Shown here piece after piece: positions 16,268-61,989 of a DNA stretch of 64,000 bases; the stretch's first letter is position 1, and each line of letters begins with the position of its first letter. The position numbers and the translations under genes were made by a program. Origin of the DNA: Nanobdellati archaeon (GTDB taxonomy: Archaea; EX4484-52; WAPT01); assembly GCA_027038505.1 (NCBI GenBank), contig JALVWC010000013.1, positions 55,795 to 119,794 of the forward strand, read 5' to 3'. The notes below the pieces were generated by a model. That model ran no database searches. It saw only the letters and a program-made list of their open reading frames with translations, and was not told the origin of the DNA.

Positions 16268-16714
16268 ATGAAATATGTGATAGCTCACGACATAAGAGAG
16301 CTTGCGGAAGACGTTGTGAAAACGCTGGGCTGGGAGTACATAGACCTCGGCAGAGTGATATTTCTAAGGAGTTACGGTTCATCATCGAAAAGGGTTGTTG
16401 CAAGATGCCACGGGCTTGGCAGGATATGGCAAAAAGCGCTGGGGCTCAAACCCCACTACATCATCGAAGTTATTTCTGAAAACTTTGACAATCTCAATCC
16501 CGAGGAAAAGGTGAAAACTGTGATTCATGAACTGATGCACATACCCAAATGTTTTGGCGGGGGGTTCAGGCACCACGACTGGGTAAATCCGAGAAATGTT
16601 AAAAGATATACAGATCTTTACCTAAGCAGAGTAAAGGAAACGGAAAATCACGGATCATCCCGCAAAATTCTCGGAAAAAGTCTCAGATCTTTACCTCCCT
16701 CTCCATCCCGATAG
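16268..16714 (+). CDS. HExxH metallopeptidase-like protein (SprT/COG1451-like)
   Basis: HELMHIPKCFGGGFRHHDW zinc-binding motif. 148 aa. Confidence 0.4.
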   Translation: MKYVIAHDIRELAEDVVKTLGWEYIDLGRVIFLRSYGSSSKRVVARCHGLGRIWQKALGLKPHYIIEVISENFDNLNPEEKVKTVIHELMHIPKCFGGGFRHHDWVNPRNVKRYTDLYLSRVKETENHGSSRKILGKSLRSLPPSPSR

Positions 16715-25337: not shown

Positions 25338-28300
25338 TCATTCTTCCTCCTCACCGACCTTAAGTCTCGGGTTTATGTGCATCGCTCTCAGCTCATCAAG
25401 CAGCAGCTTGAATGCATAGCTTACCTCGGCCTCCTCCACGTTTTCGGACTTACACAACTGACATATCGGTCTGCCTTTTATGTAATCAAACATTGCTATG
25501 CTTCCGCAGTCCTTACACACATAGATCTTGGTGCGGTCGGAGCTGAACCTCTCCTTAAGTGTTATTGCCGCCCCGTGCGCTATGAGGCAGTCCTTCTCCA
25601 TCTCTCCAAACCTCAGACCGCCCTCCCTGCTTCTTCCTTCCGTGGGCTGCTTGGTGAGTAGGGTAACTGGGCCCCTTGCTCTTGCGTGTATCTTGTGTGA
25701 TGCTATGTGGTACAGCCTGAAGTAATGACCCACCCCTACGAGAATATGTGCCCCGTATTTCTTGCCGGTGACACCATCATACAGCACTTCCTTACCGTCA
25801 TACCTGAATCCGGCATTTTCTAAAGCCTTTATTATCATATCCTCGTTAGACTTGAAAACTGTACCGTTCACCCTCTCCCCCGCAAGAGCTGCGGCCTTAC
25901 CACCTATGATCTCAAGGAGCTGGCCAACGGTCATTCTGGAGGGAATGGCATGAGCATTTATTATGATATCTGGGGTTATACCATCCTTGGTGAATGGCAT
26001 GTCCTGCTCCGGAACTATGAGACCTATAACTCCCTTCTGCCCGTGTCTCGTTGCGAATTTGTCTCCGATTTCGGGCATTTTGGGTTCCCTAACCGTTACC
26101 TTTACAAGCCGATCACCCTCGTCGTTCTCAGTCACAACAACCTTATCCACTATGCCGTCCTCTCTCGGATTTACTGTCTCGGAGTTGTCTCTCACCGCTT
26201 TTATTCCCATCCTGACCTCCTTGAGAACTCCGAGGAACCTTATTGGAGAGATCTTACCCACAAGCACATCGTTGCCCTTAACCTCCGTCTCGGGAGGCAC
26301 GATTCCGTCCTCATCGAGATGTCTGTATGCAAAATCGCCCTTGAAACCTCTAACTGTCGGGTCGGGGATCCTTATCTCATCCTCCTGCCCTCCCCAGTAC
26401 CTCGTTGCCTCCGTTATGTATGTTCTGTAGAAGTATGACCTGCCCATTCCTCTTTCTATCGAAGCTTTGTTGACAATTAGTGCATCCTCCATATTATAAC
26501 CTTCAAAGGGCATTACGGCAATGACGAGATTCTGGCCAGTTGGATGCTCCTCCAGCCCTGCAAATTTTGAGGCATCGGATGCTATTATCGGAAGCTGCGG
26601 GTAAGCGAGGAGGTATGCTGATGTGTCTGTTCTTATGAGGTAGTTTTTCATGTAAAGCCCGAGGGACTGCACTATCATTCTCGTACCGTAGTTCAGCCTG
26701 TCACCCCTGTCCTTCTCCGCAAGCACAAGGAGGGAAGCGTCAACTCCGAGTATGAAAAGTGGATCAATCTCCAAGTGTGTGTGTTCCTCCGTAAGATCCT
26801 CTTCCCGGAGAGCGACATAAGCGTTTTCTTCCTCCTCAGCGTCGAGGTACTCAACTATTCCCTTTTCAACGAGATCCTTCCATGTTATCTCTCCCTTAAG
26901 GAGTTTCTCTTTCAGCTCATCCGTAAGTTTGGATTTTCCTTTCTCAACAACAATGAGGGGTCTCCTCGCCCTGCCGACATCGGTGTTTATGACAACCTCA
27001 TTCCTGTCAGCATAATATGCGACATTCATCTTCCTTGTTATGACACCCTTCCTCCTCTTCTCTCTCAGCATCTCGGCGAGCTTCTTGCCATCCGGGTGGT
27101 ATCCAATGAAGTTACCGTTAAGGTAAACCTCAGTTCCTACTATGTCTTTTTCATTAACACCGAGAGCATTCAGTGTGGAGATTATTTTGGTGTTTTCCAC
27201 CTCCGTGGCTTCTGTTGTTACCTCGGCGGCTATCGCAAGGAACTTCCTAAGCCCTATGTTCTGGCCTTCAGGCGTTCTTATGGCACATATCCTGCCCCAC
27301 TGAGTGGGATGGAGCTCTCTCGCTTCAAAATGTTCCTGTGCGGAGGATAAAGGTGAAACAACGCTTCTAAGATGGGCAACGCTTCTTATGAAGTTGCTTC
27401 TCTCGAGCCTCTGAGAGACTCCGGTTCTTCCACCAACCCAGTTTCCTGTGGCCATAGCTCTCATTATCTGCTTGGTGAAAACTTCAGAAACCACCGTGCT
27501 CTGCAGTTTCAGAAGCTTCCTGCCGCGCTTCATCATTTTCTGGTAGTTGTACTGCAGCCTCGCTATCAACCCCCATCTTCCAAGAATAACGGATCTGACT
27601 AGCATCTCCATGAGCTCGCCGACCATTCTGAGGCGCTTGTTTGCATAGTGATCTATGTCATCAGGCTCTATCTTGCCCCTTCTGAGCTTTATGAGTTTCC
27701 TCATCACCATGGCAAGGTATCTCGCCTTAATGAGCCTGCTTGCAGGGGTTGTTCCAAGATGCGGTAGGAAATAATTGTCAAGGAGGTGATAGACCCTCTC
27801 AGGTCTCTGCTCTTTTTGAGTTATTTTCATCTTTCTGCCAAGATAATCAACAGCATCATCCTTTCCATACACTTCAACACCATAAATGTTGAGGTACACA
27901 TCCTCCAGCTCGTCCTCCTCCGCATTTATGGCTTCGATTATATCCTTATCGCTGTCCATACCCAGAGCCTTTATCACCGCTATCAACGGGATGGGCTGCT
28001 GTACACCGGTAAGCCTTGTGGTTATTATCCCGTCCTTCTGCCTTTCGAATATGTGTTTTTGGACAAACCCCCTCCTTTCTGAGTTTATCCTAATAAAATA
28101 CTCTCCCTTCTTCTTCTGGAGTATCAACCTGTTGGGAGCTACCTCCTCAGAGATAACCACAACTCTCTCAGTACCGTTGATTATGAAATACCCGCCGGGA
28201 TCATCGGGATCCTCTCCGACCCTTATCAGCTCTTCCCTGCTCATCTTTGAAAGCGGGCAAAGAACGGACTTGACCATCACGGGGATTTCCCCTATTTCCA

Positions 28301-28631
28301 CAGTTTCGGTGTTGTACTCCACATCCTCGAAAATATGGGTCATCTCGACAAAAACTGGAGCAGCATAAGTTATGTTCCTTAGCCTCGCTTCGTGCGGAAG
28401 GATGGGCTCGATGTTCCCTCCGGGTTCTCTGACTTGCGGTTCTCCGACCATCACTTTACCCAGTTTGATGTAGAGCTCCTCTCCTGTTGGGAGCTCTATC
28501 GGAATCTTCCCTATCTCGTCGATTATTCCTTGCAGCCTTCTGGTGACGAAATCGTTATAAGATTCTATCTGGTGTCTGGCCAGCGCCCCATCCCTTGCGA
28601 GTTCGTCCAAAAAACTCTTGCCCAAGTTCAT
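25338..28631 (-). CDS. rpoB: DNA-directed RNA polymerase subunit B, unsplit (full-length 1097 aa)
   Basis: A single continuous ORF covers both the B'' and B' regions. C-terminal zinc ribbon [22 protein letters not shown]. Confidence 0.95.
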
Positions 28632-28942: not shown

Positions 28943-29080
28943 TGGTGGGCCCGACGGGATTTGAACCCGCGACTCCCGGGTGTCTTCCGCTCCTGCCATA
29001 CGGCAGGGAGGGCAGTCTGGTTAAAAGCTTCGCCCTCCTCGTTAAGAGCCCGGCGCTCTACCAGACTGAGCTACGGGCCC
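28943..29080 (-). tRNA. tRNA-Lys (anticodon CUU) with a ~62-nt anticodon-loop intron, CCA encoded
   Basis: Reverse complement GGGCCCG-TA-GCTC-AGTCTGGTA-GAGC-G-CCGGG-CUCUUAA-[intron]-CCCGG-GAGTC-GCGGG-TTCAAAT-CCCGT-CGGGCCC-A-CCA. 138 nt versus about 76 nt mature. Confidence 0.8.
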
Positions 29081-30123: not shown

Positions 30124-30881
30124 TTAGATCACCCCACAAAATTGTTATCAGAGATTTTTAATTTGGCTTATCGACCGTTTGAAAGAGAGTTTGCTTCAGG
30201 TTCAATCCATTATTTTCCAGTACACTATTTTCATTACTATGGCAATACTATATATTTTTTTCGTTTTCTATACGGGAGCCATTCAAACAAGGAAAGAAAA
30301 CACCACGAGAATGCAAGTTCGGGTGAGACGCCTTCCTGTGGAGATTCAACACAACATACCTCCCACTAAGACGCAAAGATAGAAAGCCTGTAACGGTATT
30401 TTACCGGAATGGTTATTTAAATCGGTATCGATCGCGGGCCGGTGTCGAATTTTTCGAGGATAAGGATGTTATAATGGGGTGTGGAAGATTGTTCAGCAGG
30501 AATATCAACACCCCGTCCGAGTTTCATACGGATAATAAATGCGATCGATGAAATTGTGAGATTTAGCGGGATTGTACAGCCTCATTAACATTTATATATG
30601 CACACGAGTTATCAGTGTTTATTATAGAGAGGGTGGCTTATGAGAAAAGGAGAAGGAAAAGCTCAAGGAGTCGTTCACGAGAACCACGGATATACTGATA
30701 AAGCTCAAGCGCCAGATCCTCGAGTTCCAGAAGAAAATTAAGGAGTAAGGGCAGATTTTGAAACTAAAAAATTTTAAAATACAATCCACATAGGTACTTC
30801 TTGGAAGCGGGCGGTATGGGGGAGGTTCGGAGAAGTTATTCCGATATCCCGATGTTGCCTGCAACTGCTCAGTTTTGAAGC

Positions 30882-30994
30882 GCCGCGGTCGCATAGCCAG
30901 GTAGTGCGGTGGCCTCGAGAGCCACTGCCCGCAAGGGCGCGCCGGTTCAAATGCAGAGAGCCTTACCCTGCTGAAAATCCGGCCCGCGGCGCCA
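30882..30994 (+). tRNA. tRNA-Ser (anticodon CGA) carrying a 26-nt insertion (putative non-canonical intron) in the T-loop
   Basis: GCCGCGG-TC-GCAT-AGCCAGGTA-GTGC-G-GTGGC-CUCGAGA-GCCAC-[long variable arm TGCCCGCAAGGGCGC]-GCCGG-TTCA[AATGCAGAGAGCCTTACCCTGCTGAA]AAT-CCGGC-CCGCGGC-G-CCA. 113 nt against about 87 expected. Removing the 26 nt restores a canonical TTCAAAT T-loop. Confidence 0.7.
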
Positions 30995-31129
30995 GTTCAT
31001 AGTTTGATAACCTAGGCAGTACAATACGGATCTAATGGATATTCTGTCCCTTTCATCAATTGACAGATAAATAAGAAATTTTTCGATTGTCTTCCCCGCA
31101 GAATTCACATAGATATTGTGATCAGGTTT

Positions 31130-31993
31130 TTATCCCTTCACCGTTGATCCGCTCTCGTTGTCCTCCAGAAAGTATTTTAGCGCTTCCTGAATCGTACCGA
31201 CTTCCACGACCTTAACGCTAAGGTTCCACAGCGCGGTTTTTACCGGCACGTACTCCACATCGCAGAACCTGACGCCCTTTTGCCATTCGTAGCAGAACTC
31301 CCTTTCCTTGTAATCATAAAGCTGTTTCAAGCCTTTGGGTACGAGGAAGTACTTCATGTGGAGGCTGTCCGCAACCTTGGCCTTTTCCACTATCTTGCTC
31401 GCTGCCCCGATCGTGCCGTCATGGTTTATGCTCCCCGTCATCATGACATCGTCCCTGAGCTTCCTGCCTGTGAGCGCCGCATACGTTGCAACAGCTATGG
31501 AAGCGCCACCGCTTCCCCCCTCGAGCTCCGTGGCGGGAGCTTCAATATCGTAGTAGAGGTCCACTTTGCTTAAGTTTATGTCCGCAAGCTTTGCCGCCAC
31601 AAGTGCGGCCTTTCTTATGGACTCTTGAGTGTCATCGTTGACCAGCACTTTACCGATTCTTATGTAAATTCTGCCCTTCCCCTTCACGGCCCTAACGTGC
31701 ACAACCGCATATACACCGGTGTCGTTCGCCATCACCGCGGGAATGATTATGGATGCAGTGCCGTTGTTGACAAGCTCCTTTTTTCCCTCAAACGAGGACC
31801 ATGGAACAGCACCACCTTGAGATGTTCCTGTTTGATGAATTTTTGGGCTAAGGATGAACTTTGCAAGATGGCTTTCCACACCAGCGAAGACTCCGATCAA
31901 AAAGGAAAGCAGAATGAGAAGCAACACTAATCCGCCAGACCCACATGGCGAAGTTACCAATTTTCTCCCTTTTTTACCCCTTCTTTTCGACAT
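31130..31993 (-). CDS. membrane-anchored Lon-like S16 peptidase domain protein without AAA+ module
   Basis: N-terminal signal anchor (LVLLLILLSFLIGVFAGV). C-terminal GGSGGASIAVATYAALTG...DVMMTGSINHDGTIGAASKIVEKAK aligns with the Lon proteolytic domain Ser-Lys dyad region (DGPSAG...DVAMTGEI...GGLKEK). Confidence 0.6.
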   Translation of the reverse strand: MSKRRGKKGRKLVTSPCGSGGLVLLLILLSFLIGVFAGVESHLAKFILSPKIHQTGTSQGGAVPWSSFEGKKELVNNGTASIIIPAVMANDTGVYAVVHVRAVKGKGRIYIRIGKVLVNDDTQESIRKAALVAAKLADINLSKVDLYYDIEAPATELEGGSGGASIAVATYAALTGRKLRDDVMMTGSINHDGTIGAASKIVEKAKVADSLHMKYFLVPKGLKQLYDYKEREFCYEWQKGVRFCDVEYVPVKTALWNLSVKVVEVGTIQEALKYFLEDNESGSTVKG

Positions 31994-32030
31994 CCCGATC
32001 TTCCTCCGAAAAACAAAACATCCATAATTA

Positions 32031-32312
32031 CGCGGCAGGGCTTCCCGGGGGTGGAGCGATGCCTTCTCCTCCGACAGGAATGCTGCCTACCTCCCCTCCG
32101 CTGATCTCCGAGCACGGATGCAGAGGCTTAGGGCTGCTCCCTTCCGGGCCTGACCCGGTTCACCCCTGCAGCCGCCTCGGAGGGCAGAAGGTCATTGTTC
32201 AGCAGCAAGCTGCCGGAGGAGCGCAACTCGCCCGCCCCCCGGTTTTCGGCCCCGCCATGAGCCCGTTTGCGGTTACAGGGAGGGGCTAGCTCCCCGGCCT
32301 AGCCCTGCCGCA
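32031..32312 (-). ncRNA. ffs: signal recognition particle RNA (7S / SRP RNA)
   Basis: Reverse strand reads GCGGCAGGGCUAGGCCGGGGAGCUAGCCCCUCCCUGUAACCGCAAACGGGCUCAUGGCGGGGCCGAAAACCGGGGGGCGG ... GGUCAGGCCCGGAAGGGAGCAGCCCUAAG ... CCCGGGAAGCCCUGCCGCG. It shows the archaeal Alu-domain pattern, the universally conserved helix-8 motif (GGUCAGGCCCGGAAGGGAGCAGCC) and 5'/3' terminal pairing. A TATA box sits about 25 nt upstream and an oligo-U tract lies downstream. Confidence 0.85.
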
Positions 32313-32333
32313 AGTAAGAATAGAATAGTGGTA

Positions 32334-32341
32334 TTTTAAAT
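32334..32341 (-). promoter_or_regulatory. TATA box (TTTAAAAT on the minus strand) for SRP RNA
   Basis: Located about 25 nt upstream of the inferred SRP RNA 5' end at about 32312. Confidence 0.55.
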
Positions 32342-32490
32342 AGTTTTGGATTGAATGCGCTCTGCAGCTTCCACTGGAAGGAAGGTAAAAAGTAAGTGGA
32401 AAGTGCTGTGATGGTTGTGAGAGTATGTCTTTTTTATTATTTATGTTTTGTTGTGATTAAATTAAAAGTTACGCGCACAGCAAAAGTCCT

Positions 32491-33726: not shown

Positions 33727-33762
33727 AAGGAAAAGAAGGACGCAAAGAACATCAAAACTTTT

Positions 33763-34059
33763 TTATTTTTTCTTTTTCTTTGCGCCCTTCTTCTCTATCC
33801 TTTCGATCCCGATCTTCCTTACGACGGGCTTCCACACCTCGCTTCCCATCCAGGAAGGCGCATTTGGCGGGGCAGGTACCTTCTTCCTGCTTCCCTCGTA
33901 GATGTGGATCTTGTTGGTTCCCCTCTCCCTGAGCCTTATGGTTGTGTAACCTCTTGTTGCTGCCTTCAAAGCTGCCTGTCTCGGCTGTCTTCCGGTAAAG
34001 ACCCCTATTTCATTCCCGTTTTCATCCAGCAGAACAAAGTACCTCTTCTTTCCGGCCAT
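33763..34059 (-). CDS. chromosomal protein MC1
   Basis: RYFVLLDENGNEIGVFTGRQPRQAALKAATRG...IRLRERGTNKIHIYEG...APPNAPSWMGSEVWKPVVRKIGIERIEKK is closely similar to Methanosarcina MC1 (FVLRDE.GNEHGVFTGKQPRQAALKAANRG...IRLRERGTKKVH...APKNRP.WMP...KPFVKKIGIEK). Lys-rich C-terminal tail. Confidence 0.8.
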   Translation of the reverse strand: MAGKKRYFVLLDENGNEIGVFTGRQPRQAALKAATRGYTTIRLRERGTNKIHIYEGSRKKVPAPPNAPSWMGSEVWKPVVRKIGIERIEKKGAKKKKK

Positions 34060-34163: not shown

Positions 34164-35462
34164 TCACAGAAAAAGCTCATGATAACTGGCGATGATCTCA
34201 CCGCTGAGCATCACATGCTTAACGCAACCCGGAAATGTTATGCCTTCGTAAGGTGTCCATCCGCACTTGGAACGTATCATGTCATTGTTAACTTTTGTCT
34301 CATGTTTAAGATCAAGAATCGTTAGATTTGCCGCACACCCCTCCTCTATCCTTCCCTCGTTCTCCAGACCCACAAATCTTGCCGGGTTGTAAGAGCACAT
34401 TCGAAGTATGAGGACCGGATCAAACTTTTCCTTCTCCAGGAGCCACGTCAAAAACAAGCCGTAGGTATCGAGCTGAGGCACCCCGCTGGGAGGGTTTTCG
34501 CTTTCCTTTTCTTCCGTGGTGTGGGGAGCGTGATCGCTTGCAAGAAAATCCGCAGCACCGCTTCTGACCATTTCGATCAGCTTCGCGCGTCTCTCCTCGT
34601 CCCTTAGGGGAGGGTTCATTTTGAGATATGCTCCCTTCTTCTTCATGGCGTTCTTGTTGAAAAACAAATGGTGAGGTGTAACCTCACAGCTCACCTTCAT
34701 CCCGCGTTCCTTGGCTTTGAGTATCATTTCCATGGCTTCGGGTGTTGAAACGTGAGCTATGTTGAAGTGAACTTCGGGAAAGCGCTCAGCAATCTTTAGT
34801 GTTTTCTCAACGCAGACGTATTCTGTTTCTGGAGCTCTTATTTCCGGATATGCAGCTATACCTAACTTCGAGTTTTTGAATTTTTCCTGTAGCACATCAA
34901 CCATGCTCTGCTCCTCGCAATGCAGCGTTATGGGCAGACACGCCTTCCTTATCTCCTGCAGAGCGCCTTCCAGAACCTCATAATTTACGGTCATGTTTCC
35001 CGTGCTCTGGCACAGAAACGCTTTGTAACCCACGATCAGATCCTTCATCCCGCTCAGCTCGGTTATGTTGTCGGTGGCCACGCCCCCGTAAAACTGCACG
35101 GGAATCTTTGCCTTCTTTGCCAATCTTACTTTGTTCTCTATTCTTTCTTTCGTTGTCCCTGTCGCCGGTGTGTTGGGCATATCAACCACTCTGGTCACGC
35201 CTCCGTTCAGAGCTGCCATGCTTCCCGTTCTGAAATTCTCTTTGTGCGTCCATTTCCCGCTTTCGTCCTCTCTCAGATGCACATGAATATCCATGAAGCC
35301 CGGGAAGATAAGGCAGCTGTGCTCAGCTTTTATCTTCTCCCTTCCTTTGATGCAGCTTAGGGAGACTTCAGCAATTTTGTCATTATCAATTCCTATGTAC
35401 CCTTCCTTAATACCGTCCAACGTTACGAACCTACCCTCAACAACGATATCCCGCATAACCAT
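34164..35462 (-). CDS. pyrC: dihydroorotase
   Basis: Amidohydrolase motifs FPGFMDIHVHLRE...DMPNT. Directly downstream of pyrK-pyrD on the same strand, with a 1-nt overlap. Confidence 0.8.
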   Translation of the reverse strand: MVMRDIVVEGRFVTLDGIKEGYIGIDNDKIAEVSLSCIKGREKIKAEHSCLIFPGFMDIHVHLREDESGKWTHKENFRTGSMAALNGGVTRVVDMPNTPATGTTKERIENKVRLAKKAKIPVQFYGGVATDNITELSGMKDLIVGYKAFLCQSTGNMTVNYEVLEGALQEIRKACLPITLHCEEQSMVDVLQEKFKNSKLGIAAYPEIRAPETEYVCVEKTLKIAERFPEVHFNIAHVSTPEAMEMILKAKERGMKVSCEVTPHHLFFNKNAMKKKGAYLKMNPPLRDEERRAKLIEMVRSGAADFLASDHAPHTTEEKESENPPSGVPQLDTYGLFLTWLLEKEKFDPVLILRMCSYNPARFVGLENEGRIEEGCAANLTILDLKHETKVNNDMIRSKCGWTPYEGITFPGCVKHVMLSGEIIASYHELFL

Positions 35463-37237
35463 TACCTTTTATGATAAGCTCCCACAGCTTCCTCAAGCCT
35501 CTCAAACCCTCTTTTTTCAAGCTCCTCCTCAAGCTCTTTCTGAATTGCGGCAAAAACGCTTATTCCTCTGTGAACTATGGCACTGCCTATCTGGAAGAGA
35601 GAAGCACCGCAGGCAGCATATTCAAAAGCGTCTCCCCCATCAAATATTCCCCCAACTCCGATGATGGGGATGTTCAGCTCTTCGTAGAGTTCATAGACAA
35701 CTTTCTTACCGACTTCCTTGTGCTTTCTTCCGGACATTCCTCCGTAACCCGTGGGATTGCCGAGCAGCTTGATCTCCTTCCCGTCCATTCTTATTGTGGG
35801 TTTAGCGCGTTTTGTGTTTATGGCGGTTATTGCGCTTGCTCCGCCTTCCTCGGCGGCTTTGGCAACAGCGACGTAATCGCAATTCGGCGAGATCTTAACA
35901 CTTACGGGCACGCTGTTCTTCTTTCCAACCCCCACCACAGCTTTTGTTATGCTTCTGACCAGCTCAGGGTCGTTCTCCACGCTGGATATCTCGGTGTGGG
36001 GACATGAAACGTTTATCTCTATCATGTCCGCGCCGTATTCTATAGCTTTGGATGCAACATAAACGCATTCCTCCTCGTTCTGGCCGAAGATACTAACAAT
36101 TAGGGGAACGTTAGCCTTCTTTGCATCCGTTATGTCGAGCCTGTAATTATCTATGCCGGGGTTGGGCAGACCCATGGCATTGACATATGTTCCCTCATCC
36201 ACCTCAGCAAAAGTCGGGTTGGGAAATCCCGTTCTTTCCTCTTTTCCCACCGACTTTGTGACCACGGCCCCAGCTCCGTTTCTGGCGTAGCGATAGAGGA
36301 GCATGCCCGAAACGCCAAAACCTGCGGCGTTCATGAAGGGATTGCCAAACTTTATGCCAAATAGCTCCATGCTCAGCCTTGGGTTCATCTCAACTTTCAA
36401 TGGAGGGATCGGTGGAGAGGAAATATCGTTGCCAGCTATCGCAATCCTTTTCCCGCTTTTGTCGCGCTTCCACCTTCCGAATTCCGTATTTAGCAGGAAT
36501 TTCCCATCAAACACAGGACCATCCTTACACACCCTGAAACCGAAGATGTCGCAAGCACCGCAGGCACCCCTCGCACATTTAACTATCCTTTCTATGGATG
36601 CCTGCACCGGAATGTTTCGAGCTGCTGCGATCTCGCACACCTTACGCATCATTATCTCCGGACCGCATGTGAATATCATATCGGGCTTTTCTTTTCGCAA
36701 CTCCTCCTTCAACAAATCCGTAACGAAACCCCTGAACCCGGCGCTCCCATCGTCTGTCGCTACCTTTACATCACCCGCTTTCCTTAAGTGTTCAGCATAG
36801 AGCAAATGTTCCCTGCCTCTCGCTCCCAGAAAGCTCGTGACATGCACGCCCTTTTCCTTCAGCTTCTCCGCAAGGAAACGGAGCGGAGCCGCTCCGCATC
36901 CTCCAGCCACGAGCCATGCTGACTCAAGCTCGTAAGACGTATCGAAGCCATTACCGTAGGGGCCGCGCAACCCCAGCTTATCCCCCGCCTTCAGTTCATG
37001 AATCTTTGATGTGCAATCCCCCACCCTCGCTATGGCAAGCTCGATGACACCTCTTGATGGATCAGCATGGGCGATGCTTATCGGAATCTCATCCACCCCT
37101 AGGAGGAGAACCATGAGAAACTGTCCTGCCCGGGCCTTTCGTGCTATGTCGGGAGCGAGAAACACGAAGGTCTTTATGGCTGGCGTTTCGTCCCTTATCT
37201 CGGTTATTTCGTAGAACTGGGGAAGTTTCGTTGTCAT
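35462..37237 (-). CDS. pyrKD: fused dihydroorotate dehydrogenase: electron-transfer subunit (PyrK) N-terminal half plus class 1B catalytic subunit (PyrD) C-terminal half
   Basis: N-terminal 260 aa has the FNR-like fold (AGGCGAAPL NAD motif) and the 2Fe-2S cysteine cluster CARGACGACDIFGFRVC. The C-terminal 320 aa has class 1B DHODH motifs (GNPFMNAAGFG, VVTKSVG, NPTF, GLPNPG, EINVSCPHT, IIGVGGI). The ORF is continuous. Confidence 0.8.
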   Translation of the reverse strand: MTTKLPQFYEITEIRDETPAIKTFVFLAPDIARKARAGQFLMVLLLGVDEIPISIAHADPSRGVIELAIARVGDCTSKIHELKAGDKLGLRGPYGNGFDTSYELESAWLVAGGCGAAPLRFLAEKLKEKGVHVTSFLGARGREHLLYAEHLRKAGDVKVATDDGSAGFRGFVTDLLKEELRKEKPDMIFTCGPEIMMRKVCEIAAARNIPVQASIERIVKCARGACGACDIFGFRVCKDGPVFDGKFLLNTEFGRWKRDKSGKRIAIAGNDISSPPIPPLKVEMNPRLSMELFGIKFGNPFMNAAGFGVSGMLLYRYARNGAGAVVTKSVGKEERTGFPNPTFAEVDEGTYVNAMGLPNPGIDNYRLDITDAKKANVPLIVSIFGQNEEECVYVASKAIEYGADMIEINVSCPHTEISSVENDPELVRSITKAVVGVGKKNSVPVSVKISPNCDYVAVAKAAEEGGASAITAINTKRAKPTIRMDGKEIKLLGNPTGYGGMSGRKHKEVGKKVVYELYEELNIPIIGVGGIFDGGDAFEYAACGASLFQIGSAIVHRGISVFAAIQKELEEELEKRGFERLEEAVGAYHKR

Positions 37238-37271: not shown

Positions 37272-37380
37272 TGGTGGACCGGCCGGGATTTGAACCCGGG
37301 GCCTCCGCCACTCTGGCGCGCCACCAGCTCATGGCTGCGCGGTGCCAAGGCGACGTCCTTCCAGGCTAGACCACCGGCCC
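37272..37380 (-). tRNA. tRNA-Ala (anticodon GGC) with a ~33-nt anticodon-loop intron, CCA encoded
   Basis: Reverse complement GGGCCGG-TG-GTCT-AGCCTGGAA-GGAC-G-TCGCC-UUGGCA-[intron CCGCGCAGCCATGAGCTGGTGGCGCGCCAGAG]-U-GGCGG-AGGCC-CCGGG-TTCAAAT-CCCGG-CCGGTCC-A-CCA. Confidence 0.8.
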
Positions 37381-57776: not shown

Positions 57777-58879
57777 TTAGTCAAACAACATCTCCTCCTC
57801 GATTCTCGAAGCAAGAGAGAAGACGAGCAGCATAGCACCTAAGACCACAAAGGTAAGGTTCAGGTTAATGTCCATGCTTTTTCCCACGGCAGGATTCATG
57901 AAGACGAGCAGCAGGGATCTTGTCATACTTATGAAGGAAAGAGTCGTGGCTCTTGTCTGAGATTCAAGAAATTTGTTTATGTAATTTATCATAACTTGTC
58001 CCCTTGCCATTCTGAACGCTAATCCGAGGGATATAGCAACTATCAGCGCAATCCAGTTTGAGGATGTTCCAAGCACAAGGTAACACACAGCAGGGAGCAT
58101 GGCAGATAACAACAGATAGTTCTTTTTTCCACCAACCATTCTCTCCATTTTCTCAACAAGATGAAGCGTGATTATTTCGCTTGCTATTATACCAGCATGG
58201 ACAAAACCAAAGAGTGCAATGGGAAATCCAACCTGCATCAGCTTGGCCTGATAACACCAGATGAAAAAGTAGGTTAATGTATTGACTACAACAGCATCCA
58301 GCGCAAGCGTCCTGACCTCCCTCGAACTTCTGATGAGTTTAATGCTCCTTTTCAAAATCTGGGAGTAGGCGACATGGTCATGCTTTTCATGCAGTGCCGG
58401 CTCCTTCAGTGTTAATGCTATCAGAAACGCGAGAAAGAAGGGAATAGCCGTTAAAAGCATGGTTGCCCTCACACCAAAATAATGCGCGATCACACTGCCG
58501 ATAGGAGCCGAAATTCCCATTCCAAGCAGGTCAATCTGCCCAGTCGTATGAAAACCCTCTTTGATTCCTTCTCCCTTCCGATCTCCTTCAGCGTGTCGTA
58601 AACAAAGGCCTCCTCAGCTCCGGAGAGAAAGCTAATTCCTGTTCCAAAAAGGGATTCAGCAAGAACAAAGATCCAGAAATCCGGGTAGCTGGTATAGATG
58701 ATGGCTCCAGCTGTAATGAGGAGAAAACCGATGGCGATGGAAACCTTTCTCCCGAGTTTGTCAGCCACAACACCCGTTGGTGCCTCCCCCACCAAAATCG
58801 TACCCTGAAAGATGGCCTGCAACACCATGATTCGGGTGAAATCCAGACCGCCCCACAACGTAAAAAACGGGATAAGCAC
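57777..58879 (-). pseudogene. MFS transporter disrupted by frameshift and lacking a canonical start codon
   Basis: Two overlapping ORFs in different frames (58490..58879 and 57777..58520) together give an MFS topology. Upstream in-frame sequence ...IKELAGNIKKVYILNFLTSFEFFSAVLIPFF has no ATG/GTG/TTG before TM1. Confidence 0.5.

Positions 58880-61870: not shown

Positions 61871-61989
<119 letters not shown>

Follow-up and report, generated by a model that had tools for sequence, protein, structure and literature searches.

On the minus strand of the window, that is, the whole 64-kb stretch of DNA analysed here, positions 32034..32309 very probably constitute the organism's signal recognition particle (SRP) RNA gene, in which helix 5 runs straight into helix 8 without helix 6. 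As an SRP RNA gene it is ordinary, and its one notable property is that helix 6 is absent across the lineage. We regard the deletion as a stable, inherited character, since it recurs in two related species and in at least five other metagenomic sequence lineages.

In the canonical particles of archaea and eukaryotes, SRP19 acts as a clamp on the helix 6 and helix 8 tetraloops, with helix 6 serving as the SRP19 docking site and as a partner in the helix 6-helix 8 adenosine clamp. Helix 8, which features a symmetric and an asymmetric loop and a GGAA tetraloop, binds the M domain of SRP54, while ribosome-proximal and GTPase-activating roles fall to the Alu domain and to the helix 5 hinge loop. 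Reviews call helix 6, SRP19 and the adenosine clamp universal in archaea and eukaryotes; the need for archaeal SRP19 has been debated since the viable Haloferax deletion.

Identity, relatives and putative transcription signals of the SRP RNA gene

An earlier note, made from the letters of the window alone, had placed an archaeal SRP RNA on the strand opposite a predicted open reading frame (ORF) and named the Rfam family Archaea_SRP (RF01857) as the means of checking it. In a gathering-threshold scan of the 64-kb window with Rfam 15, RF01857, which belongs to the SRP RNA clan CL00003, was the sole SRP match and reached 145.1 bits (gathering score 96.5, E 2.9e-33), covering the model from position 1 to 317 without truncation and thus bearing the proposal out. 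At the level of sequence, the gene is homologous to archaeal SRP RNA over its full length. The 5' part of the minus-strand RNA reads GGCAGGGCUAGGCCGGGGAG...CCCUGUAACCG...GGCGGGGCCGAA, exactly as the note had quoted it, and the segment 32309..32034 begins with GGCAGGGCUAGGCCGGGGAGCUAGCCCCUCCCUGUAACCG and ends with GGGAAGCCCUGCC. The bounds that had been proposed, 32031..32312, were right to within 3 nt per end; the 5' and 3' ends of the 276-nt RNA probably lie where the Rfam match places them. Local GC content peaks at 0.685 over the gene compared with ~0.38-0.50 in the flanks, in agreement with the GC-rich stretch noticed before.

A gene for Nre lies 181 nt upstream of the SRP RNA in divergent orientation, and relatives were found through the Nre protein sequence. 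Among 185,579 species genomes, only two close Nre matches exist, WAPT01000002 ('Nanobdellati archaeon S144_79_esom', 73% identical) and JAPDKB010000002 ('archaeon S5B5_HD70', 70% identical), the next match being 44% identical. In both relatives an SRP RNA neighbours Nre, in the same orientation as in the window (loci L003 and L004), and only these two keep the RNA beside Nre, as no SRP RNA was recovered by synteny at the more distant Nre loci L005-L082. Moreover, the exact Nre protein of the window is also present in an ENA metagenome assembly (L001) and in a Logan assembly (L002), so that independent assemblies carry the locus; the sequence of the window is found in ENA assembly ERZ23491300 and in run SRR13622958.

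The following putative transcription signals flank the RNA:

32332..32349, minus strand: putative archaeal promoter, an A-rich BRE-like CCAAAA(C) followed by a TATA box
32009..32018, minus strand: oligo-T run TTTTGTTTTT, 16-25 nt past the RNA 3' end

The TATA box CTATTTAAAATA occupies 32332..32343 (-), its centre being ~28 nt upstream of the Rfam 5' end, which is close to the distance of about 25 nt given in the earlier note. The promoter block ATCCAAAA.TATTTAA does not vary between the window, L003 and L004, while the adjoining spacer diverges, and similar A/T boxes occur at an equal distance from the RNA in the metagenomic loci L093/L121 and L103. Judged from its position and this conservation, the BRE/TATA element is a candidate promoter of the SRP RNA gene. 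The oligo-U run that had been described as a terminator is likewise in place, T-runs follow the SRP RNA in L003 and L004 too, and a role as archaeal terminator appears plausible.

Domain architecture and the missing helix 6

The Rfam alignment, supplemented by a minimum free energy (MFE) fold and by covariation, assigns the parts of the RNA as follows:

32301..32309, minus strand: helix 1, 5' strand GGCAGGGCU (Rfam alignment and MFE fold)
32246..32300, minus strand: Alu (small) domain, helices 2-4 (model positions 10-64, high posterior probability)
32167..32242, minus strand: helix 5, 5' strand (Rfam alignment; covariation in the distal half)
32168..32169, minus strand: junction where helix 6 is expected (40 model positions, 141-180, deleted; 0 nt inserted)
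32125..32166, minus strand: helix 8, predicted SRP54 M-domain site (model positions 181-228)
32045..32124, minus strand: helix 5, 3' strand (Rfam alignment, MFE fold and covariation)
32034..32042, minus strand: helix 1, 3' strand AGCCCUGCC (Rfam alignment and MFE fold)

Helix 1 comprises 9 bp between the RNA termini, whose complementarity had been recognised beforehand, and its pairing is kept by different sequences in other lineages, for instance GAGGGGGC/GCCCCCUC in L093. The Alu domain features the motif UGUAAC (UGUNR) at 32272..32277 (-) and shares 97% identity with L003 and L004 and 65-83% with the other lineages devoid of helix 6. The hinge (5e-5f) region on the 5' strand of helix 5 is marked by ACAAUGA, a conserved internal-loop sequence, and C113, A115, G117 and A118 of the same strand are invariant in 10 sequences. 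The invariant helix 8 motif GGUCAGGCCCGGAAGGGAGCAGCC, which had also been named in advance, is found at 32132..32155 with its GGAA tetraloop at 32142..32145, and a 40-nt helix 8 block is identical among the window, L003 and L004.

Within helix 8, archaeal SRP RNAs share the 35-nt block GAACCGGGTCAGGCCCGGAAGGGAGCAGCCCTAAG letter for letter with bacterial large SRP RNAs and with many high-GC bacterial 4.5S SRP RNAs, an exact conservation of the SRP54/Ffh site across domains.

At the junction between helix 5 and helix 8, the cmscan alignment reads [40] in the model against [ 0] in the RNA, and the RNA measures 276 nt versus 317 positions in the RF01857 model. The deleted model positions 141-180 correspond to the helix 6 hairpin, as read from the alignments of three metagenomic controls (L092, L096 and L124), where an 18-bp stem with a GGAG or GGAA cap occupies them. 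The same helix 6 deletion is present in the orthologues L003:2441-2716 (147 bits) and L004:3630-3906 (139 bits). Hence, the expectation of an RNA composed of Alu plus S domains held for the Alu domain, helix 1, helix 5 and helix 8, and failed for the S domain as a whole, which is incomplete for want of helix 6. Since it does not have this helix, the RNA is classed as a homologue of archaeal SRP RNA in the sense of a structural variant, and not as a canonical member.

Distribution of the deletion in metagenomes

When metagenomes were scanned with the 35-nt block of helix 8 common to the window, L003 and L004, 43 loci (L083-L125) were returned, the majority of which are bacterial, either 4.5S RNAs or large SRP RNAs with dnaX downstream. 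Thirteen of the 43 are archaeal-type. Six of these, falling into three sequence groups (L092/L099/L104/L114, L096 and L124), keep helix 6 and measure 311-332 nt, while the remaining seven, in five sequence groups (L093/L121/L125, L123, L103, L102 and L105), are without it, a share that is biased because the query came from an RNA that itself has no helix 6. The metagenomic RNAs devoid of helix 6 measure 266-284 nt and score 134-171 bits to RF01857, and the same 40-position deletion with 0-1 nt inserted was found in L093, L121, L123, L103, L102 and L105. A pattern consisting of the helix 5 anchor ACAATGAC, a gap and the helix 8 motif yielded zero metagenome matches, because the helix 5 anchor is too lineage-specific.

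The taxonomy of the metagenomic loci goes no further than the archaeal type of the RNA, AT-rich flanks with TATA-like boxes and few neighbouring genes. The flanks of the RNAs without helix 6 are AT-rich and several of them feature TATA-like boxes at ~-25 to -30, while the few annotated neighbours, TrmB, ThyX and a PilB3-type ATPase, are compatible with archaeal hosts.

Structural support and covariation

Secondary-structure folding, which had been suggested as a further check, gave a stable structure for the 276-nt RNA, with an MFE of -164.2 kcal/mol and z = -5.7, and none of 200 dinucleotide shuffles folded as well; in this fold, the Alu domain and helix 8 are not separated by any hairpin. 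The same holds for single-sequence MFE folds of all short RNAs (0/10 with such a hairpin), which adopt an unbranched rod leading from helix 5 into helix 8, whereas all three controls (L092, L096 and L124) form a three-way junction with a GGAG/GGAA hairpin.

Covariation was assessed on nine S-domain segments in a MAFFT alignment built without structural guidance (A3), as the full-length MAFFT alignment of 10 RNAs misaligned the 3' halves. For A3, the RNAalifold prediction is a single uninterrupted helix that leads into helix 8, with 26 of 45 pairs changed on both sides. Standard pairs occupy 92.2% of the cells compared with 34-50% when partners are slid by 1-3 columns, both-side changes occur in 27 pairs compared with 8-16 when slid, and the covariation score amounts to 0.572 compared with 0.09-0.16 when slid; on none of these measures did any of 500 shuffles of A3 reach the observed value. 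In the helix adjoining helix 8 (columns 33-54 with 89-112, helix 3 of the structure predicted from A3), 17 of 21 pairs changed on both sides. Covariation in A3 thus supports the long helix 5 that connects the Alu domain with the S domain.

Between the window and L004, compensatory changes convert CUGCAGGGG/CCUCUGCA into CUGUACCGG/CCGGUACU and, in a second instance, CUCCUCCGG/CUGUCGGAGGAG into CUCGCUGGG/CUGCCCGCGAGC. The core of helix 8 yields no covariation evidence, since it served as the exact query of the metagenome search and is therefore invariant by construction. Both RNAalifold and the MFE fold draw this core as a pair of small hairpins and not as the canonical, loop-rich helix, which is treated here as an artefact of the energy model, the columns in question being invariant and carrying no evidence.

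Alternative explanations

The set of an Alu domain, helix 5 and helix 8 without helix 6 is also that of bacterial large SRP RNA (Rfam RF01854), so that a Bacillus-like RNA acquired by horizontal transfer comes into consideration. The 35-mer of helix 8 is identical to that of many bacterial SRP RNAs, and identity in the Alu domain discriminates poorly, amounting to 70% with the bacterial L090 versus 62-77% with the archaeal controls. Because pairwise identity outside helix 8 separates archaeal from bacterial large RNAs poorly, the decision was left to clan competition. In this competition RF01857 wins for the window, L003, L004, L093, L121, L123, L103, L102 and L105 (the output lists the winning score alone), that is, for the window RNA and for 8/8 other scanned RNAs without helix 6 despite the 40-position deletion, while RF01854 wins only for L090, a true bacterial large RNA of 271 nt followed by dnaX. 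Furthermore, the match extends over the remainder of the archaeal model from one end to the other, its length unchanged, and the putative promoter is of the archaeal TATA type and conserved. A bacterial origin is hence most unlikely, and since clan competition keeps the archaeal model throughout, we read the RNA as an archaeal SRP RNA that lost helix 6 and not as a bacterial import.

Equally improbable is that the gene represents a decayed or redundant copy, with a canonical, helix 6-bearing SRP RNA gene residing elsewhere in the genome. Such a pseudogene would account for the missing canonical feature, and the inspected DNA amounts to 64 kb of the genome; yet the deletion is clean, with 0 nt inserted, and identical in a species whose Nre shares no more than 70% identity, compensatory substitutions have preserved all other helices, the promoter block does not vary, and the same architecture recurs in at least five further sequence lineages. 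Moreover, one SRP RNA gene per genome is the rule in archaea. The compensatory pair changes in the RNA therefore mark the deletion of helix 6 as an inherited, selected architecture and not as decay.

The least tenable alternative concerns the ORF on the opposite strand:

31945..32289, plus strand: 114-aa ORF antisense to the RNA gene, spurious

This ORF exists exactly as the earlier note described it, including its richness in Pro and Gly (29% Pro+Gly), and the verdict that it be discarded was upheld by every coding test run (Pfam, conservation, frame and codon positions). It could be argued to encode a protein, alone or overlapping the RNA gene, since it starts with ATG, remains open for 114 codons and is open in the same frame across the RNA in L003 too; this has next to no probability, however, as an open frame of this length is expected from a 68% GC RNA gene alone, in which stop codons are few. 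No Pfam family was matched at E<=0.01, the ATG and the N-terminus are not conserved in L003 or L004, and a 1-nt indel in L004 shifts the frame and alters the C-terminal part. The 39 differences from L004 inside the ORF are spread over codon positions 1, 2 and 3 as 15/11/13 without third-position excess, and it is in the pairs of the RNA helices that compensation is found instead. In addition, the 5' end of the ORF shares 49 nt with the start of the Lon_C-like gene on the opposite strand (31130..31993). The absence of a Pfam match, of a conserved start and of codon-position bias, together with the frameshift in one relative, is the reason for discarding the ORF.

Genome context

The genome context of the window is archaeal. 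Its genes include those for unsplit RpoB, RpoA', RpoA'', L30e, NusA, S12 and S7 as well as Nop5, fibrillarin, S19e, L31e, eIF6, MC1 and Nre; furthermore, the threonyl-tRNA synthetase (ThrRS) carries an archaea-specific editing domain, and intron-bearing tRNAs are present. Nanobdellati, the label borne by the nearest relative, is the NCBI name of a kingdom under Archaea that includes the DPANN phyla. Judged by the genes of the window, the genome does not seem to be a strongly reduced one. Three genes of the window may serve for orientation:

25338..28631, minus strand: RpoB, unsplit, 1097 aa
33763..34059, minus strand: MC1 chromatin protein
35462..37237, minus strand: fused PyrK-PyrD dihydroorotate dehydrogenase, 591 aa

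The window also encodes NrdD with its activase, an AFOR-family enzyme, Cdc48 and a type IV pilus-like ATPase with two T2SSF proteins. A 148-aa protein (16268..16714, +), whose gene sits between an unannotated ORF and the AFOR-like gene, matches the Pfam family PhageMetallopep (putative phage metallopeptidase) with E 2.4e-25. The overlapping ORFs 57777..58520 and 58490..58879 (-) match positions 135-342 and 28-114 of the MFS_1 profile, respectively, which suggests that 57777..58879 (-) is one MFS transporter gene split by a frameshift, be it a sequencing error or a pseudogene.

Directly downstream of the SRP RNA and on the same strand, a gene for a Lon_C (S16)-like, small membrane-anchored protease is located at 31130..31993 (-). 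Such a gene follows the SRP RNA also in L003, in L004 and in the divergent L105 (L105:1111-1869 (+)), which is likewise without helix 6, and the SRP RNA and the Lon_C-like protease may constitute a conserved gene pair, as judged from this synteny. On the other side, between the convergent Nre and MC1 genes, lies an inverted repeat of 28 nt (33730..33795, 82% complementary, 10-nt spacer), which gave weak miRNA-like Rfam matches and is probably a terminator hairpin shared by Nre and MC1, situated partly in their lysine-rich coding tails.

Several further RNA genes were noticed. An unannotated tRNA-Ser(CGA) with a long variable arm is encoded at 30880..30994 (+), and its presence explains the GC-rich patch at 30800..31000. 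Its T-loop is split by a non-canonical intron of 26 nt (~30953..30978); the gene was missed by Rfam at the gathering threshold and by ARAGORN, which calls a tRNA-Ser after in silico removal of the 26 nt. The region is kept in L003 (82%) and L004 (78%), a TATA-like TTTTAAAATA is found ~100 nt upstream, and a leader of ~70 nt may occupy 30806..30879. ARAGORN found 3/5 of the Rfam tRNAs in the window; the two that it did not report, 28946..29080 (-) of 135 nt and 37275..37380 (-) of 106 nt, presumably contain introns. A stand-alone 5S rRNA (88 bits) is present at 61872..61988 (+), and neither 16S nor 23S rRNA is found in the window.

SRP19 and the proposed assembly of the particle

Transcription of the SRP RNA would be driven by the BRE/TATA element ~28 nt upstream and would end at the oligo-T run that follows the gene. 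In keeping with established SRP biology, helix 8 is predicted to bind the M domain of SRP54, and the particle would deliver ribosome-nascent chain complexes to FtsY and SecYEG, while the hinge loop of helix 5 with its invariant ACAAUGA and the Alu domain would serve ribosome-proximal and GTPase-activating functions. Because helix 6 is the docking site of SRP19 and its partner in the clamp, the S domain would have to assemble independently of SRP19, as it does in bacterial SRP.

This raises the question of SRP19 itself. None of the 67 ORFs of the window encodes SRP19, SRP54 or FtsY. An SRP19 profile built from PDB 1LNG, PDB 1KVN and human SRP19, used without a positive control, gave nothing below E=1 in the six-frame ORFs of the window and 125 loci (~1 Mb). 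On a tentative reading, to which we give somewhat less than even chances, several uncultured archaeal lineages, at least some of them DPANN/Nanobdellati, lost helix 6 together with the SRP19 gene; their S domain would then consist of two components, SRP54 and RNA, as in bacteria, next to a retained archaeal Alu domain.

According to a review, SRP19 co-exists with helix 6, both being present in every archaeal group surveyed by 2010, and the helix 6-helix 8 adenosine clamp is considered probably universal (PMC2905702). Archaeal SRP54 binds SRP RNA in vitro without SRP19, and a Haloferax SRP19 deletion is viable and shows no translocation defect (PMC2905702).

Comparison with known systems

With the archaeal SRP RNAs of RF01857, such as those of Methanocaldococcus jannaschii and Archaeoglobus fulgidus, the window RNA shares homology over the whole model, helix 1, the Alu helices 2-4 with UGUAAC, the long helix 5 with its conserved internal loop, and the CAGG/AGCA loop and GGAA tetraloop of helix 8, as well as, in putative form, the TATA promoter and the oligo-T terminator of archaeal SRP RNA genes. 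It differs from them in being devoid of helix 6 (~40 nt with a GNAR tetraloop) and, at 276 nt, in being shorter than the usual ~300-330 nt. With bacterial large SRP RNA (Bacillus subtilis-type scRNA/6S, RF01854), on the other hand, it shares the set of helices, the closing helix included, and a similar length of ~270 nt; in such bacterial particles Ffh/SRP54 alone occupies the S domain. Unlike RF01854 members, however, the window RNA is best matched by the archaeal model, resides in an archaeal genome and is preceded by a putative archaeal promoter; the likeness concerns the way of working and does not amount to membership.

Among archaea, Thermoplasmatales SRP RNA features a degenerate helix 6 loop, AAAG instead of GNAR (PMC2905702). 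The SRP19/helix 6 module thus looks relaxed in Thermoplasmatales, yet helix 6 is present there, whereas in the window RNA it is gone; the relaxed helix 6 may represent a step towards loss. Another departure from the canonical form is the SRP RNA of Thermoproteus, which is permuted and circularised; circularisation re-establishes the order, and no helix is lost (Plagens et al. 2015, PMC4731332). That gene is likewise non-canonical and can escape standard annotation, while the gene of the window is collinear with one helix deleted. In the published full-text literature, to which the search was confined with subscription papers and database notes outside its scope, neither an archaeal SRP RNA without helix 6 nor a report of SRP19 loss in DPANN was found.

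Significance

At the level of annotation the outcome is routine, as an SRP RNA gene replaces a spurious ORF and any Rfam-based pipeline would find the gene. In lineages of this kind, SRP RNA finders that are keyed on length or on helix 6 may fail, as may SRP19 when it is taken for a marker of all archaea. With regard to evolution, an archaeal SRP RNA has probably converged on the Bacillus-type architecture. Lineages without the SRP19 docking helix, in which the deletion has been kept through speciation while other parts of the RNA evolved by compensatory change, allow a comparative test of whether loss of SRP19 tracks loss of helix 6. If both were indeed lost together, these archaea would constitute a natural knockout demonstrating that SRP19 is dispensable in archaea, and their RNAs a previously unrecognised structural class of archaeal SRP RNA.
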